This document shows positions 9,271 to 40,014 of a DNA stretch of 44,899 bases, piece by piece. The DNA comes from Escherichia phage SSL-2009a. How positions within the stretch are numbered: the first letter of the stretch is position 1; each line of letters begins with the position of its first letter. The notes beneath the pieces are model-generated. The model was not told the origin of the DNA and searched no databases. It saw only the letters and a list, made by a program, of their open reading frames with translations. Both the position numbers and the translations under genes were made by a program. Location: the sequence record NC_012223.2, one strand, 5' to 3'.

Positions 9271-9864
9271 GTGGCTGAGGTATACTCATTCGCCGCCACG
9301 ATCGCAACGTGGGTGGATAAGACGAAGGAGAACAACGACAAGGCGGTGCGGGCGTACGGTATGCAAATACTCGGACGCCTGATCGAGATCTCCCCGGTTG
9401 GGGATCCCCGCCGGTGGAAAATTAACAGGGCTTACGCGCTGGCCCGCCAGCACGCAAACAAGGTGAACGCCGCGCAGCGGCGCAAGAATGGCGGCAAACT
9501 GAAGCGCGGGCAGAAGAAACACGCCAGTGTGCTGGTATCATTCAAAACTAAAAACGGCAATGTAACATTCCGCCAGCGTGGTTGGGCCGCGAAGAATTAC
9601 ACCGGCGGGCGCTTCCGGGGTAACTGGCAGGTGACGTTCGACCGCCCGGCTGTTGGCGCTATTGACCGCGTGGACAAGGCCGGAACGGCAACACTAGCCG
9701 CTGGGCGTGAAGTGCTGGCACATTACGATTCGAGTGAATACGGGTCGATCTGGTTTACTAACAACGTGCCATACGCGCAGCGCCTGGAGTATGGCTGGAG
9801 TAAACAAGCGCCCGCGGGGATTGTTCGCGTAGTAGCGGCAGAAATCAATTCGAAGGTGAAATAA
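9271..9864 (+). CDS. neck / tail component protein (putative)
   Basis: 197 aa, GTG start with SD AAGGGG; position between head-tail genes and tail terminator. Confidence 0.5.
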   Translation: MAEVYSFAATIATWVDKTKENNDKAVRAYGMQILGRLIEISPVGDPRRWKINRAYALARQHANKVNAAQRRKNGGKLKRGQKKHASVLVSFKTKNGNVTFRQRGWAAKNYTGGRFRGNWQVTFDRPAVGAIDRVDKAGTATLAAGREVLAHYDSSEYGSIWFTNNVPYAQRLEYGWSKQAPAGIVRVVAAEINSKVK

Positions 9865-10286
9865 TGAGCAATACTCTAATCCGCAAGGCGCTTAACCGCG
9901 TGGTAGAAGATTTATCGGTAAGCCTGAGCACCAGCCATCGACCGATCCTTGTTAACTGGGAGAACGTGCAGGGGGACCACGCAAACGGTAGTGGTGTCTA
10001 CCTGGAGCCGTACTTACTACCGGCACCGACCCAGTTTGTGGGCTTCCAGCAAAAGGGGAGAATCTATGCAGGCGTTTATCAGGTTGCCGTTGTGTTTCCC
10101 GCGGGTACTGGCACACAGTACGCGAGCGAACTGGCGGACGCCATCGCTACGTCGGATAAGTGGCTGGCGGTAAAGATTTCCGGCGCTGCATTCCAGCTTC
10201 AGGACGCGCCATACACCAGTTCGGTGATTGAAGACGTTGACCGCGCCCGCATCGTAGTTACAGTCCCCTACACCTGTTGCGCCTGA
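9864..10286 (+). CDS. tail terminator / tail completion protein (putative)
   Basis: 140 aa, start overlaps previous stop (TAATG); immediately upstream of major tail protein gene. Confidence 0.5.
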   Translation: MSNTLIRKALNRVVEDLSVSLSTSHRPILVNWENVQGDHANGSGVYLEPYLLPAPTQFVGFQQKGRIYAGVYQVAVVFPAGTGTQYASELADAIATSDKWLAVKISGAAFQLQDAPYTSSVIEDVDRARIVVTVPYTCCA

Positions 10287-10347
10287 TTTGGCGCTATTCT
10301 GCGCGTGCTGTATCATTGAACCGTATATCTAAACAGGAGTGTTCATT

Positions 10348-11073
10348 ATGGGTTATCAACTTCCTAACGGGTCCAGCGTCCAGATTGGGTCCGTACTGGG
10401 CAACGGCATCGCTGTTACGGCAGCTACCAACGCCGCCGCGTCGATCTCTGATCTTACGAAAGGTTGCGTTATCACCTGCGCGGCTTCTCATGGCCTGCAA
10501 GTTGGTGACGTGGTTATGTTCACTAAAACCCCGTGGGTCCGTGCGCTGAACCGCGCGTTCATCGTGGGTAAAGTGGCGACTAACGACGTTACACTGGCGC
10601 GCTTCGACACCTCGGACGTCACCAAATATCCTGCCGGTGCTTTTGGGGCGGGAACCCCAGGCGAAGTGGTGAAAGTGTCGAATTTTATCGACTTCCCGTA
10701 TATCACTAACGTTGCCGTGTCGGGTGGCGACCAGCAGACCACCACCTTCCAGCCGTTGCAGGTGAATACTGCGATCAGTCTGAATACCACGAAAAACCCG
10801 TTGGTCCAGACTTACACGTTCACCCACGACGAAGAAGACCCGATCCGCCCGATTCTGGAAGACCTGGACGACACACAGAAAACCACTGTGATTAAGTTCA
10901 CTAACCCGGCAGCGGCAAGCGGCAAAGGTGAGATCCGCATTTACCCGGCTAAGGTGTCTTTCCAGAAGATTCCATCGGCTGAAGTAAACAACGTGGAGAC
11001 GGTGGAGTCCACCCTCACTATGCAGTCCGATATGGTTATTTACCGTAAGGACCTGGTTGAAGCGCTGTCGTAA
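10348..11073 (+). CDS. major tail protein
   Basis: 241 aa from ATG 10348 (SD AGGAG 9 nt upstream); directly precedes the G/G-T chaperone and tape measure genes; followed by terminator. Confidence 0.65.
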   Translation: MGYQLPNGSSVQIGSVLGNGIAVTAATNAAASISDLTKGCVITCAASHGLQVGDVVMFTKTPWVRALNRAFIVGKVATNDVTLARFDTSDVTKYPAGAFGAGTPGEVVKVSNFIDFPYITNVAVSGGDQQTTTFQPLQVNTAISLNTTKNPLVQTYTFTHDEEDPIRPILEDLDDTQKTTVIKFTNPAAASGKGEIRIYPAKVSFQKIPSAEVNNVETVESTLTMQSDMVIYRKDLVEALS

Positions 11074-11103
11074 TTTGGTCGCTTAAATAGCGGGTGTTAA
11101 TAT

Positions 11104-11128
11104 GGGGCCAGTACGGCCCCTTTTTTTA
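11104..11128 (+). terminator. rho-independent terminator after major tail gene
   Basis: GGGGCC-agtac-GGCCCC followed by TTTTTTT. Confidence 0.65.
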
Positions 11129-11143
11129 TTGGAGAATACCACA

Positions 11144-11506
11144 ATGGCTAAAGCACCACTCTTTACACTCGACCCTAAACCGACTTTTAAGCTACCGATT
11201 GAGATCCCGCGCCCCGGAGAAAACGAACCTGGCAAAATGACGTTTACCGTGCGCCACCGTCCGATCGACGAGTTTTCGCAGACCATGCAGGATACTGAGC
11301 GCAAGTTGTCAGAATATGACGACAATGACCCGGACGGCTTTAATGTTATGGTCGAGGCCATCATGCACGTCGCAGAAGGCTGGAATCTGCCGGACGAATT
11401 TAACGCGGAGAACGTCCGCCGCTTGGTGGTCAACTACCCGCGCGCGTTCGGCGTGTTCCATACGTCGTACTATCTCGAACTGATGGGATTGCGTGAAAAA
11501 AACTAA
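11144..11506 (+). CDS. tail assembly chaperone (gpG-like)
   Basis: 120 aa from ATG 11144 (SD GGAGA); acidic; ends just after the slippery heptamer A_AAA_AAC (11497-11503). Confidence 0.7.
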   Translation: MAKAPLFTLDPKPTFKLPIEIPRPGENEPGKMTFTVRHRPIDEFSQTMQDTERKLSEYDDNDPDGFNVMVEAIMHVAEGWNLPDEFNAENVRRLVVNYPRAFGVFHTSYYLELMGLREKN

Positions 11507-11820
11507 TTGAGGCGGCGCGACGCTTTTATGGCCCGCCGCCACCCTCCGAAGATTTAGCCGCGAGTTTATGGGGCGCGGCCCCTGAAGATGTTTGCCCACC
11601 AGTTGCGCTATGGCCCGACAACGCTAAGGTAGTCGCCGTCTTCACGGATTGCTCCACGCAATGGCGCACCGGATTCGGCGGCGCATACGGCATCGACTAC
11701 GGCGTACTGGAATGGCTTTTTAAGATGCACGGCATCGAAAACGCGCAACGTGCGTTTAAAGATATCAAGCTAATGGAACGAGTTGCGCTGGATGAAATGG
11801 CGCGGCAGAACCACGCATAA
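11144..11820 (+). CDS. tail assembly chaperone frameshift product (gpG-T-like, via -1 frameshift at 11497-11503)
   Basis: The -1 frame is open from the slippery site A_AAA_AAC to TAA 11818-11820 (about 105 extra codons, translated by hand with no stops); canonical position between major tail and tape measure genes. Confidence 0.6.
11497..11503 (+). other. programmed -1 ribosomal frameshift slippery heptamer A_AAA_AAC
   Basis: X_XXY_YYZ heptamer in the zero frame of the gpG-like gene, two codons before its stop. Confidence 0.6.
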
Positions 11821-12145
11821 CGGAGCGGGACAGGCGGGACGTCCCGTTTTGTCCCGCCACCACTAAACCGCATATATACTCACTTTCATTGCATAAATTA
11901 AAAGCGGGACAGGTGCGCTGTCCCGATCTGTCCCACCCCCAAAATGTGAATATCTATTCGATTTTCGTGCATAAAACAAACGGGACAAAAAGCGGGACAG
12001 AATTGGGCGGGACAAAGCGGGACAGCACCCCTGTCCCCGCCAGTGCTGCCGCGGGTTTTAGCCGATCGGGACAGGCGGGACAAAGCCAAGTCTTTCAGAC
12101 TAGACGGGGGTCAATGGCCCCCCTCGTCTGAGACTGAATAAGGTT
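11821..12145. repeat. iteron/palindrome-rich element A (GCGGGACA units, GGGACAG-N5-CTGTCCC palindromes, terminal GC hairpin)
   Basis: At least 9 direct and 5 inverted copies of GCGGGACA-like units; about 150 bp (11978-12137) nearly identical to 39700-39860; hairpin 12101-12130. Confidence 0.7.
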
Positions 12146-12204
12146 TGTTTTAAATTCGCTGATACAATGACCGACGGCAACTGCATAAAAAGGGGGACTG
12201 CATA

Positions 12205-14844
12205 ATGGCAGATCAGGCAGCGGGCATCACGCTCAAGGCGGACGTCGCGCAAATTAAAACGGCGAATACTGTGCTGGACACATTTGCGCAGAAATCCGAG
12301 AACACAGAACAGAAAGTAAAAAAATTAAACGACACCCTCGGCAAGTCGAAAAAGGTTACTGGCGACGCCGCGGGCGGAATGGAAAAGTTAGCGACTGAAT
12401 CGCAGCGCGCCGCCGACGGCATGACGAAACAGGAGCGACTAGCCAGCCGATTAGGCATGTCGACCAAAAACCTGGGATTCGCATCGCGGAACGCCGCATT
12501 CCAGTTACAGGATATCGCGGTTACGCTTGAGATGGGTATGCCGGTGCACCGCGTTATGCTTCAGCAGCTACCGCAGCTTACTGGGGCGTTTGGCGGACTG
12601 GGAAACACGCTGCGTTATGTCGTCGGCACACTCGGCCCGTTAGGGATCGGCATCGCTGCATTAACGGCAACGCTCGGCGTAGGGGTGGCAATTACGACCC
12701 GCGCAGAGAACCAGGTGGCGGCGCTTAATAAGACGCTGGCGCTGTCCGGTAATATTTCAGGCCTGACAGCTAACCAGATCCTTGTGCTGTCCGAGAACGC
12801 CGAGCGCATGGGCGGGTCATTTCGCAAGACGCGTGACACAATCCAGGCGCTGGCGGCGGCGGGTGTGAAAGCGGGTGGTGACTTTGGCGCATTGGCTAAG
12901 GTAGTGAATGACTTTGCGAAGGTGTCCAGCCAGCCGATCGAGGATGTGGTAGCGGCGGTGGCGAAGCTGTCAACCGACCCGGTAGGCGGCTTGCGCGCAC
13001 TGGCGGATAAGTATCACGTCGTAAACGAAGCGCAGATCCAGCAGGTACAGTCGCTGGTTGATGCGGGTCGTGAGACAGACGCAGTTGCGTTGGCTAACAA
13101 AACAGCCGCTGCGTCGTTCACCAGCATGACCAATGAGATCAAGGCGAACATGGGTACGCTTGAGCGGTCTATGAACGTCGTCACTTCGGCAGCTAAATCA
13201 ATGTGGGACGCTATCCTGGATGTGGGTCGCGCGCAGTCCTCCAATGAGTCTGAGATGAAAGCGCGCGAATCACTCCAGCGCATGACCACGGCGTACTATG
13301 CCGAGATGAAAGCGGTAAACGCAGCCGGTGGGGTAATGACTGAAGCGCAGAAAGCGCGTATTAACATGCTTTATAGCGAACTGGTCGCCCAGGAGAAAGT
13401 AGTAGCGTCGCTCACCCTGCGTAACCGTGCGGAGCGAGACAACGCCCGATCCGCAGACGAATCCGCAAAGGCGAACGAGGAGGCTAACCGCACCGCCCGC
13501 GACCGCGCTGCGTTCGAGAAGGAGTACGCAACCAACGCGAAGAAGCGCGCAGACGAGATCGCCCGCCTCAATTTGCTGAATAAGCGCGGCGTTATTGACG
13601 AGAAAGAGCTTGCTGAGGCGGTTAAGCAGGTAAACGAGCGTTACAAAGACCCGGCCCCGAAGAAGGCCGCGGCTGTTCGCGTGGATGCCGGTATGAAAAT
13701 GCTGGAAGTCGCACGGAGCGAACTGGCCCAGCTTCGAGAATCCGGCAAGCAGATCGAAGCCAACGCGTCTACGCAGACCCGCACGCAACGCGCGCAAGCG
13801 GCCTTAAACAAGCTGATCGCCGACAATGAGCAGTTAATTGCTGCGAGCAAAGAAAGAGCGCTAACGGCAGCAGAAAAGCAGCAGATGGTCGAATTCGGAC
13901 GCGTGAAGGAAGTGCGCGAGCAGATCGTCGAAGAAGCCAAATTGCTGGACGCGAAAGAGAAGCAGGTTAAGGCGCACGCGCAGATCGATGCCTTCGTTAA
14001 GAACCAGAACGCCGAACTAAAAGCCACCGCCGCGGGCTATGCGCTTTCCACTCGCGAAGCGGCAAACCTGCGCGAAGAATTGCAGTTAATCGACCGCCTG
14101 AAGCGTGTAGGCGCTAACGATACCGATATTGACAAGGCGGTGTCTAAGCTGCGGGAAGTGCAGGAGGCGCAGACCGGCGCTAACGCCTCGCTATGGGATG
14201 GATTCAGTCGCGGGCTTAAGGATAGCGTGGATGAAATGGGTAACGGATATACGCAGATGGCGTCGCTTACGAAATTCACATTCAGCGCTATGCAAGACAC
14301 GATGAACGAGTTTTTCGAGACTGGCAAGATTAACGCGAAGGATATGGTCAAATCCATCCTGAGCGAGTTAATCAAGCTGGCTACCTCGCAGGCGTTCAAG
14401 TCCATCGTTGGCGCTTTCGGTGGCGGCGGCAAAAACGGATTGTTCGGCGCTATCTTCTCGGGCCTCACTAAGAATGCGGACGGCGGAGCGTACGCAGGAG
14501 GCAATCTCGCGGCCTATTCGGGTAAGGTGGTAAGCCAGCCTACCTTTTTCAGTTATGGCGTCCAGGCGTTCGCTAAGGGCGCAGGATTGATGGGTGAGGC
14601 TGGACCCGAGGCCATCATGCCACTGAAGCGCGGGCCGGACGGGAAACTTGGCGTTGCCGCGTCGGGTGCGGGCGGTGGTATGGTCGTGACGACTAACGTT
14701 TACACTGGGGCCGGTAAAACAGACACCAGTGTGAGCGGCCCAGACCCCCGTACAGCGCAGGCGTTCGGCAAGCAAATCACCGAGGCGGTGAAGGCCGAGA
14801 TCGTGAAAGCGACGAAACCGGGTGGTGTACTTTACAAACGATGA
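12205..14844 (+). CDS. tail tape measure protein
   Basis: 879 aa, Ala/Gln/Lys-rich coiled-coil composition, glycine-rich C-terminal part; SD AGGGGGA; located after the G/G-T chaperone. Confidence 0.85.
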   Translation: MADQAAGITLKADVAQIKTANTVLDTFAQKSENTEQKVKKLNDTLGKSKKVTGDAAGGMEKLATESQRAADGMTKQERLASRLGMSTKNLGFASRNAAFQLQDIAVTLEMGMPVHRVMLQQLPQLTGAFGGLGNTLRYVVGTLGPLGIGIAALTATLGVGVAITTRAENQVAALNKTLALSGNISGLTANQILVLSENAERMGGSFRKTRDTIQALAAAGVKAGGDFGALAKVVNDFAKVSSQPIEDVVAAVAKLSTDPVGGLRALADKYHVVNEAQIQQVQSLVDAGRETDAVALANKTAAASFTSMTNEIKANMGTLERSMNVVTSAAKSMWDAILDVGRAQSSNESEMKARESLQRMTTAYYAEMKAVNAAGGVMTEAQKARINMLYSELVAQEKVVASLTLRNRAERDNARSADESAKANEEANRTARDRAAFEKEYATNAKKRADEIARLNLLNKRGVIDEKELAEAVKQVNERYKDPAPKKAAAVRVDAGMKMLEVARSELAQLRESGKQIEANASTQTRTQRAQAALNKLIADNEQLIAASKERALTAAEKQQMVEFGRVKEVREQIVEEAKLLDAKEKQVKAHAQIDAFVKNQNAELKATAAGYALSTREAANLREELQLIDRLKRVGANDTDIDKAVSKLREVQEAQTGANASLWDGFSRGLKDSVDEMGNGYTQMASLTKFTFSAMQDTMNEFFETGKINAKDMVKSILSELIKLATSQAFKSIVGAFGGGGKNGLFGAIFSGLTKNADGGAYAGGNLAAYSGKVVSQPTFFSYGVQAFAKGAGLMGEAGPEAIMPLKRGPDGKLGVAASGAGGGMVVTTNVYTGAGKTDTSVSGPDPRTAQAFGKQITEAVKAEIVKATKPGGVLYKR

Positions 14845-39653: not shown

Positions 39654-39699
39654 GTGTAGTGTAAATATAGTGCATAGTTATGCAATAAAACTGCATAAA

Positions 39700-39860
39700 G
39701 TAAGCGGGACAAAAAGCGGGACAAACCAGGGGCGGGACAAAGCGGGACAGCACCCCTGTCCCACCCCGGATGACGCGGCCTGGCGGGGAGCGGGACAGGC
39801 GGGACAACTCCCAGTCTTTCAGACTAGACGGGGGTCAGCGGCCCCCCTCGTCTGAGACTG
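39700..39860. repeat. iteron/palindrome-rich element B (second copy of the 150-bp GCGGGACA element; putative origin-associated)
   Basis: Six direct GCGGGACA units, one GGGACAG-cacccc-CTGTCCC palindrome, and the same terminal hairpin as locus A; near-identical to 11978-12137. Confidence 0.7.
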
Positions 39861-40014
39861 CATAAAATCCGGGATTGCAAAATACACGGCAGCATGTTGC
39901 GGATTGCGGTCGTCGCTGAACTAGGCAACCAATGCGAGTTGCAGAACGGTGGGTGGGAAATGCAGTTTGCAGTCACAGCAGATAGCGATCAACTTTTTCA
40001 TGCGCATGATTAAT

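Follow-up and report, generated by a model that had tools for sequence, protein, structure and literature searches.

Gene content and order of the locus

The window, which is the whole 44,899-nt stretch of Escherichia phage SSL-2009a (NC_012223.2) analysed here, is the genome of a Dhillonvirus, an HK578/JL1-like siphophage of E. coli. When positions 10300-12300 were searched by megablast, 157 phage records were retrieved, 147 of them with at least 80% query coverage at 80-96% identity. Dhillonvirus phages of Escherichia or Shigella, among them JL1, HK578, EP23 and YD-2008.s, make up nearly all of these records. In addition, the IMG/VR contig UViG_643677414_000001 is identical to the window. 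Two records with other host labels, OQ221563.1 (Acinetobacter phage NJ01) and one 'Campylobacter phage', are ~95% identical to E. coli Dhillonviruses in this region, and at such identity their host labels look doubtful.

The genes, hairpins and junction elements of this locus lie on the plus strand. The tail terminator gene (9864-10286; PF13554 Phage_tail_terminator_5, E 2.5e-14), a marker of synteny, is followed by the gene for the tail tube, or major tail, protein (10339-11073; PF08813 Phage_tail_3, E 2.4e-33), whose homologues are labelled major tail protein in JL1, SD276 and other records and whose ATG start as annotated in relatives corresponds to 10348 here. Downstream, the tape measure protein gene (12205-14844; PF06791 TMP_2, E 1.8e-42; PF09718, E 1.6e-13) serves as the second synteny marker. 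Between tube and tape measure sits a pair of overlapping reading frames, G and T, so that the genes run from tail terminator through tail tube, G and T to tape measure, as is canonical where a G/GT pair is present; the tape measure protein is the presumed client of G and GT. Between T and the tape measure gene lie 384 bp of non-coding DNA, a repeat region.

Gene G (11144-11506) encodes a tail assembly chaperone of 120 aa in the zero frame, running from ATG 11144 to TAA 11504-11506 and ending in GAA AAA AAC TAA. Its product matches PF08748 (Phage_TAC_4) over residues 1-120 (E 1.4e-23; 83.9 bits against a cutoff of 21.1) and phrog_569 among the PHROGs (E 1e-40), and its variable sites in 21 distinct Dhillonvirus sequences are distributed over its own codon positions as 10/6/81. 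A ribosome-binding site, GGAGA, can be read directly at 11131-11135, 8 nt 5' of the start codon. A second in-frame ATG lies upstream at 11102, inside a terminator-like hairpin, and is taken as the start of G in one GenBank record; the Pfam match takes in the protein from residue 1 as counted from ATG 11144. Searching PDB by sequence yielded nothing meaningful and, for G, no relative of solved structure, and an NCBIfam search gave no match. The AlphaFold2 single-sequence model of G (pLDDT 55, pTM 0.34) is of too poor a quality for a chaperone-fold search.

The terminator-like hairpin, found by a consensus scan and by direct reading in the interval between the tube gene and G, consists of GGGGCC-AGTAC-GGCCCC followed by seven T (11104-11127), and it may reduce how much the chaperone gene and the genes beyond it are transcribed.

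The T segment is a coding sequence

Beyond the stop of G, the -1 frame stays open from 11503 to 11820 as a T segment of 105 codons plus TAA, which matches PF08809 (DUF1799, E 3.3e-21) and phrog_680 (E 6e-31) and which can be reached only by a frameshift. The first ATG, GTG or TTG of this frame is the ATG at 11725, 74 codons in, and direct reading finds no Shine-Dalgarno sequence ahead of 11506. Joined to G, the segment gives a predicted GT fusion of 225 aa, join(11144..11503,11503..11820), and a single PHROGs profile of 213 positions, phrog_17368, aligns to this conceptual fusion over residues 1-223 of 225. A protein search with the fused sequence returned only three matches, two of them G-like and one T-like, none of which is an annotated fusion.

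The pattern of variation among close relatives bears directly on the coding status of T. Across 11144-11820, 21 distinct Dhillonvirus sequences that are 85-98% identical were aligned, and the sole length difference among them is 3 nt. Within 11506-11817, the variable columns fall on the three codon positions of the -1 frame as 22/10/73 (chi-square p 1.3e-14), and therefore the ~300 bp that seem non-coding are in fact protein-coding; judged by this periodicity, T is under clear purifying selection. The earlier note had proposed that a frameshift accounts for these apparently non-coding ~300 bp, and both the codon periodicity and the DUF1799 match agree with it. It had also named a lack of coding conservation in relatives, together with the absence of a fusion product, as what would speak against the proposal; what is seen in the relatives instead is a -1 frame that evolves as coding sequence. 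The open stretch of about 105 codons that it described, ending in TAA 11818-11820, likewise holds, with 105 sense codons counted from the CTA at 11503.

The G/T junction and its slippery heptamer

The junction reads ...CGT GAA AAA AAC TAA TTG AGG... and contains the slippery heptamer A_AAA_AAC at 11497-11503, in the X_XXY_YYZ phase of the zero frame. The zero-frame codons are AAA 11498-11500, AAC 11501-11503 and TAA 11504-11506, so that the final two codons of the heptamer are the last two sense codons of G, and the stop, which directly adjoins the heptamer, overlaps the first codon of the T frame, CTA (Leu). Thus the heptamer, which the earlier note had correctly recognized and phased, abuts the stop rather than lying two codons ahead of it; of the interval that the same note had assigned to the element, 11487-11820, the end coincides with the TAA and the start is arbitrary. 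The -1 frame itself is closed just 5' of the heptamer by TGA 11494-11496 (-1 translation ...GIA*KKLIEAARR...), and therefore a G-T fusion is possible only through a shift within 11497-11503. The overlap of the two frames is exactly the 7-nt heptamer.

The motif AAAAAAC is not enriched in the window, where it has 3 copies against 8.3 expected, and by itself it is therefore little evidence. What rises above chance is the phase and position of the heptamer, together with the codon-periodic, Pfam-matching -1 reading frame behind it, and the functional unit is 11497-11540 plus the reading frame to 11820. The heptamer is identical in all 21 distinct Dhillonvirus sequences, synonymous positions included. 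Moreover, the whole interval 11490-11517 is invariant in 21/21, including every synonymous position in both frames; elsewhere about 70% of third positions vary.

Conservation of the junction in distant relatives

The 105-aa T segment has homologues far outside the genus, as a tblastn search found it in 1,152 phage records, 995 of them at below 60% identity. Junctions were read in 12 diverse GenBank records and 44 IMG/VR loci, the window itself being left out. At every junction read, the T-homologous frame begins at the stop of the upstream chaperone gene and is -1 relative to that gene. This start of the T frame at the G stop is shared by the 12 GenBank relatives and ~30 IMG/VR loci at only 30-47% identity in the T domain, which include T1-like phages and phages of Edwardsiella, Pseudomonas, Vibrio, Xanthomonas, Ralstonia and Synechococcus. 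The first T-frame codon, overlapping the stop, encodes Leu in 15/15 aligned lineages.

Two heptamers recur at these junctions. A_AAA_AAC followed directly by TAA or TGA is found in Edwardsiella phage eiAU, in the T1-like phages ADB-2, JLBYU38 and CS01, in Synechococcus phage S-CBS1 and in one IMG/VR cluster of ~44% identity, and G_GGA_AAC followed by a stop is found in Pseudomonas phage AUS531phi, Vibrio phage Marilyn, Xanthomonas phage L522, a Ralstonia phage and another IMG/VR cluster of ~37% identity. The canonical heptamer is absent in three lineages, which have A_AAG_GTC TAA (Jk06; positions 870-883 of locus L017), A_AAA_GTT TAA (Klebsiella phage VAC11; 753-766 of L019) and A_AAG_CAC TAA (NewHawk; 891-904 of L020), and the sequences suggest slip sites for a single tRNA-Lys, one codon further from the stop.

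An arginine codon (CGN) stands two codons 5' of the heptamer (11492-11494 in the window) in almost every lineage, L522 being an exception. Its contexts are CGT GAA AAA AAC, CGC GCA AAA AAC and CGC CTG GGA AAC, with equivalents in loci L009-L016 and L036-L064, and the cause could be either conservation of this residue in G or an influence of the 5' context on shifting.

The surroundings of T differ among the relatives. Only 0-40 nt lie between T and the tape measure gene behind it in the T1-like and Pseudomonas relatives, and therefore the 384-bp spacer of Dhillonvirus is a lineage-specific insertion. In Edwardsiella phage eiAU (L009, 1209-1807), T is followed by a gap and then by a reverse-strand gene that is not a tape measure gene, and the record ends soon after.

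A candidate stimulatory hairpin

Downstream of the heptamer, after a 7-nt spacer, a GC-rich candidate stimulatory hairpin can be drawn at 11511-11540, with arms GGCGGCG (11511-11517) and CGCCGCC (11534-11540). In a local segment of 44 nt its energy is -17.1 kcal/mol (z -2.39), and 4 of 200 dinucleotide shuffles are equally stable, so that it stands only moderately above shuffles; it is solely this local fold that stands out. The fold of 104 nt downstream of the heptamer is not significant (z -1.32), the z-scores of 60-nt downstream segments from 16 lineages against mononucleotide shuffles are mostly unremarkable, and a fold of 60 nt has a z near 0.

Comparative evidence for the hairpin is partial. 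The arms are invariant in the 21 Dhillonvirus sequences, including all five synonymous sites. In an ungapped alignment of 26 diverse junctions, the column pairs of the structure derived from the window sequence can form in 68.7% of cells, compared with 56.8% in shuffled controls (0 of 500 reach the observed value) and 36-58% when the structure is slid along the alignment, and GC, CG and UA exchanges are present among the pairs. The minimum-energy fold opens a hairpin at exactly the eighth base 3' of the heptamer in 8 of 16 lineages, several lineages have no hairpin, and RNAalifold on the 26 junction sequences finds no family-wide consensus structure. With this partial support from covariation, the hairpin is likely to be a stimulator of shifting.

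Annotation of the locus in public records

In current annotation the fusion does not appear. None of ten sampled Dhillonvirus GenBank records carries a joined CDS or a frameshift annotation, and in all ten inspected records the T domain is missing, cut to a 'hypothetical protein' of 31-39 aa, split into small ORFs or started at ATT. The 31-aa ATG ORF at 11725-11820, which is a 'hypothetical protein' in many GenBank records (JL1 and SD276 among them), is a C-terminal fragment of T. The feature should read join(11144..11503,11503..11820), for a tail assembly chaperone of 225 aa that ribosomal slippage would produce, and the value of the result is mainly one of annotation. In addition, the region of CGGGACA repeats that precedes the tape measure gene has its left boundary fixed at 11821 by the T stop at 11820.

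The repeat region beyond T

The heptanucleotide CGGGACA has 23 copies in the window against 6.9 expected. Ten of them are clustered between T and the tape measure gene (11826-12082), the cluster that the earlier note called 'iteron locus A', and six lie 27.7 kb away (39705-39806). The two loci share a near-identical segment of ~190 bp with the same box spacing (about 11965-12160 and 39690-39885), which holds a strong inverted repeat, AGACGGGGGTCA..GGCCCCCCTCGTCT, around 12100-12130. These loci look like reiterated protein-binding sites of a regulatory or origin-like kind.

In the HK578 record, a rho-independent terminator is annotated just after the T stop (11124-11141, which is 11835-11852 in the window). 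At that place the window has the palindrome CGGGACGTCCCG, made of two inverted CGGGAC boxes, followed by TTTTGT, and the terminator consensus scan makes no call at 11835-11852.

Proposed mechanism and alternative explanations

On the evidence above, a programmed -1 ribosomal frameshift that yields a long tail chaperone, GT, is the most probable reading of the locus, and we give it a probability of about 0.9. The earlier note had already seen a tail chaperone frameshift of the G-T type here, and this is borne out by the Phage_TAC_4 and DUF1799 families, the position between tube and tape measure, the 74 codons of T that precede any start of its own and the conserved junction. Starting from the observed sequence anatomy, the family assignments, the coding selection on the -1 frame and the conservation of the junction, we infer the slip itself, its efficiency, the roles of the stimulators and, by analogy, the part that G and GT play in assembly.

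Most ribosomes that translate G would end at TAA 11504 and release the 120-aa G, and a minority would slip by -1 on A_AAA_AAC, with tRNA-Lys exchanging one AAA for another and tRNA-Asn exchanging AAC for AAA. CTA (11503-11505) would then be decoded, and translation would proceed through 105 codons to TAA 11818, giving a GT of 225 aa whose junction is predicted to read ...LREKN-LIEAARR.... The slip is likely to be stimulated by the stop that adjoins the heptamer and by the GC hairpin 7 nt 3' of it. If assembly proceeds as with gpG/gpGT of lambda, the tape measure protein (12205-14844) would be coated by many copies of G and few of GT, the DUF1799 domain of T would bring in the tail tube protein (10339-11073), and both chaperones would be absent from the virion.

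The choice of heptamer counts to some extent against this mechanism, as A_AAA_AAC is reported to be much less prone to shifting than A_AAA_AAG in E. coli (Atkins et al., PMC5009743). However, lambda needs about 30 G for each GT (PMC5009743), and a low shift rate is acceptable because such a ratio requires one; a heptamer of low efficiency, adjusted by the neighbouring stop and by the hairpin, would fit the ~30:1 requirement. A broader proposal can be put forward only tentatively and is rather doubtful. It holds that the Phage_TAC_4/DUF1799 families share a cassette in which a 'eukaryote-type' X_XXA_AAC lies against the zero-frame stop, the first T codon is Leu CTA or CTG and a hairpin follows 7 nt downstream, that the low G:GT ratio is set jointly by the hairpin and by a pause at the abutting stop (a 'shifty stop'), and that the arrangement has been kept from enterobacterial to cyanobacterial phages, with A_AAG or A_AAA P-site variants in a few lineages. 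X_XXA_AAC with an abutting stop across the family is a natural data set on the tuning of weak heptamers in bacteria.

The fusion might arise during transcription instead, if RNA polymerase added one A on the A7 run (11496-11502) in some transcripts, which would give the junction ...REKK-LIEAA. For E. coli RNA polymerase to slip efficiently, a run of seven A is short. The run is present at the junction in the window and its closest relatives, and polymerase slippage on runs of A or T is well known to yield such products (PMC5009743). However, relatives with G_GGA_AAC have no long homopolymer and still keep the G/T geometry and the X_XXY_YYZ phase; since either G_GGA_AAC or A_AAA_AAC stands at the junction of divergent relatives, ribosomal slippage is favoured over transcriptional slippage. 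A ribosomal site would also suit the specific phase of the heptamer, the stop next to it and the hairpin at 7 nt, and transcriptional slippage, improbable as the explanation of the locus, could make a contribution without being the main route. A still smaller chance is given to translation of T on its own, without fusion, from ATT 11506 or as the 31-aa ATG ORF 11725-11820. Exactly such features are annotated in GenBank, the ATT start in HK578 and the ATG ORF in JL1, SD276 and others, yet no Shine-Dalgarno sequence precedes 11506, and the ATT is not conserved outside the genus, the codon there being AGA in eiAU and AAA in ADB-2. As for the short ORF, it would carry just a fragment of the DUF1799 domain, whose match, like the codon periodicity, extends well upstream of 11725, and tblastn alignments to distant relatives start at the first post-shift codon.

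Homopolymer runs are also classic sites of sequencing error, and errors of this kind have been reported for the related JK06 genome (PMC3496638), so that G and T might be thought one gene with an artificial break, or T a dead remnant of a decaying pseudogene. This explanation is the least probable of all and is effectively refuted by the comparative data: the A7 run and the arrangement of frames are present in more than 20 independently sequenced Dhillonvirus genomes, the -1 geometry is also found in distant lineages with other heptamers, and the substitution pattern of T, which indicates clear purifying selection, is not that expected of a pseudogene.

Comparison with known systems

The programmed -1 frameshift proposed here has its closest model in phage lambda. 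Both lambda and the window have two overlapping ORFs between tube and tape measure, the second in the -1 frame and without a start of its own, and in both an X_XXY_YYZ heptamer lies near the end of G, with the short product presumably abundant and the fusion rare. The slippery site of lambda is G_GGA_AAG, several codons before the G stop, whereas the A_AAA_AAC of the window stands directly against the stop and is followed by a GC hairpin. The window also differs from lambda in its protein families, Phage_TAC_4 and DUF1799, and in the 384-bp non-coding repeat region between T and the tape measure gene. The frameshift in the window is, in our reading, the tail-chaperone frameshift whose conservation was described by Xu, Hendrix and Duda (2004). 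In lambda, the programmed -1 frameshift of gpG/gpGT has been described by Levin, Hendrix and Casjens (1993) and by Xu, Hendrix and Duda (2004, 2013, 2014), as summarised in PMC5009743, where G and GT are said to coat the tape measure protein and T to recruit the tube protein, with neither found in the virion. A conserved spiral fold of tail assembly chaperones is attributed to Pell et al. 2013 (cited in PMC5313236).

For HK578 or Dhillonvirus, no genus-specific description of a frameshift or a chaperone was found in the literature searched. Among T1-like phages, a conserved frameshift in the tape measure chaperone has been described for Stevie (PMC4319613) and U136B (PMC8104045) and tentatively for Rogue1 (PMC3496638), and the Rogue1 paper (PMC3496638) states that the lambda-type site is missing in this Jk06/Rogue1 lineage. 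The T domains of these phages (Drexlerviridae) are homologous to that of the window at 30-38% identity, the junction of A_AAA_AAC plus TAA is the same in ADB-2, JLBYU38 and CS01, and in ADB-2 and JLBYU38 a hairpin occupies the same alignment columns as in the window. They differ in belonging to another genus and in having the tape measure gene almost directly after T, and some lineages also differ at the site itself, with A_AAG_GTC in Jk06/Rogue1 and A_AAA_GTT in Webervirus VAC11, each followed by TAA. Outside these groups, Acinetobacter phage Loki has, at gp12/gp13, an AAAAAAC that adjoins the stop, where the frameshift is predicted only (PMC5313236), and its likeness to the window is one of arrangement. 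Set beside these systems, the tail-chaperone frameshift of the window is of a known, ordinary kind and does not alter the understanding of tail assembly.
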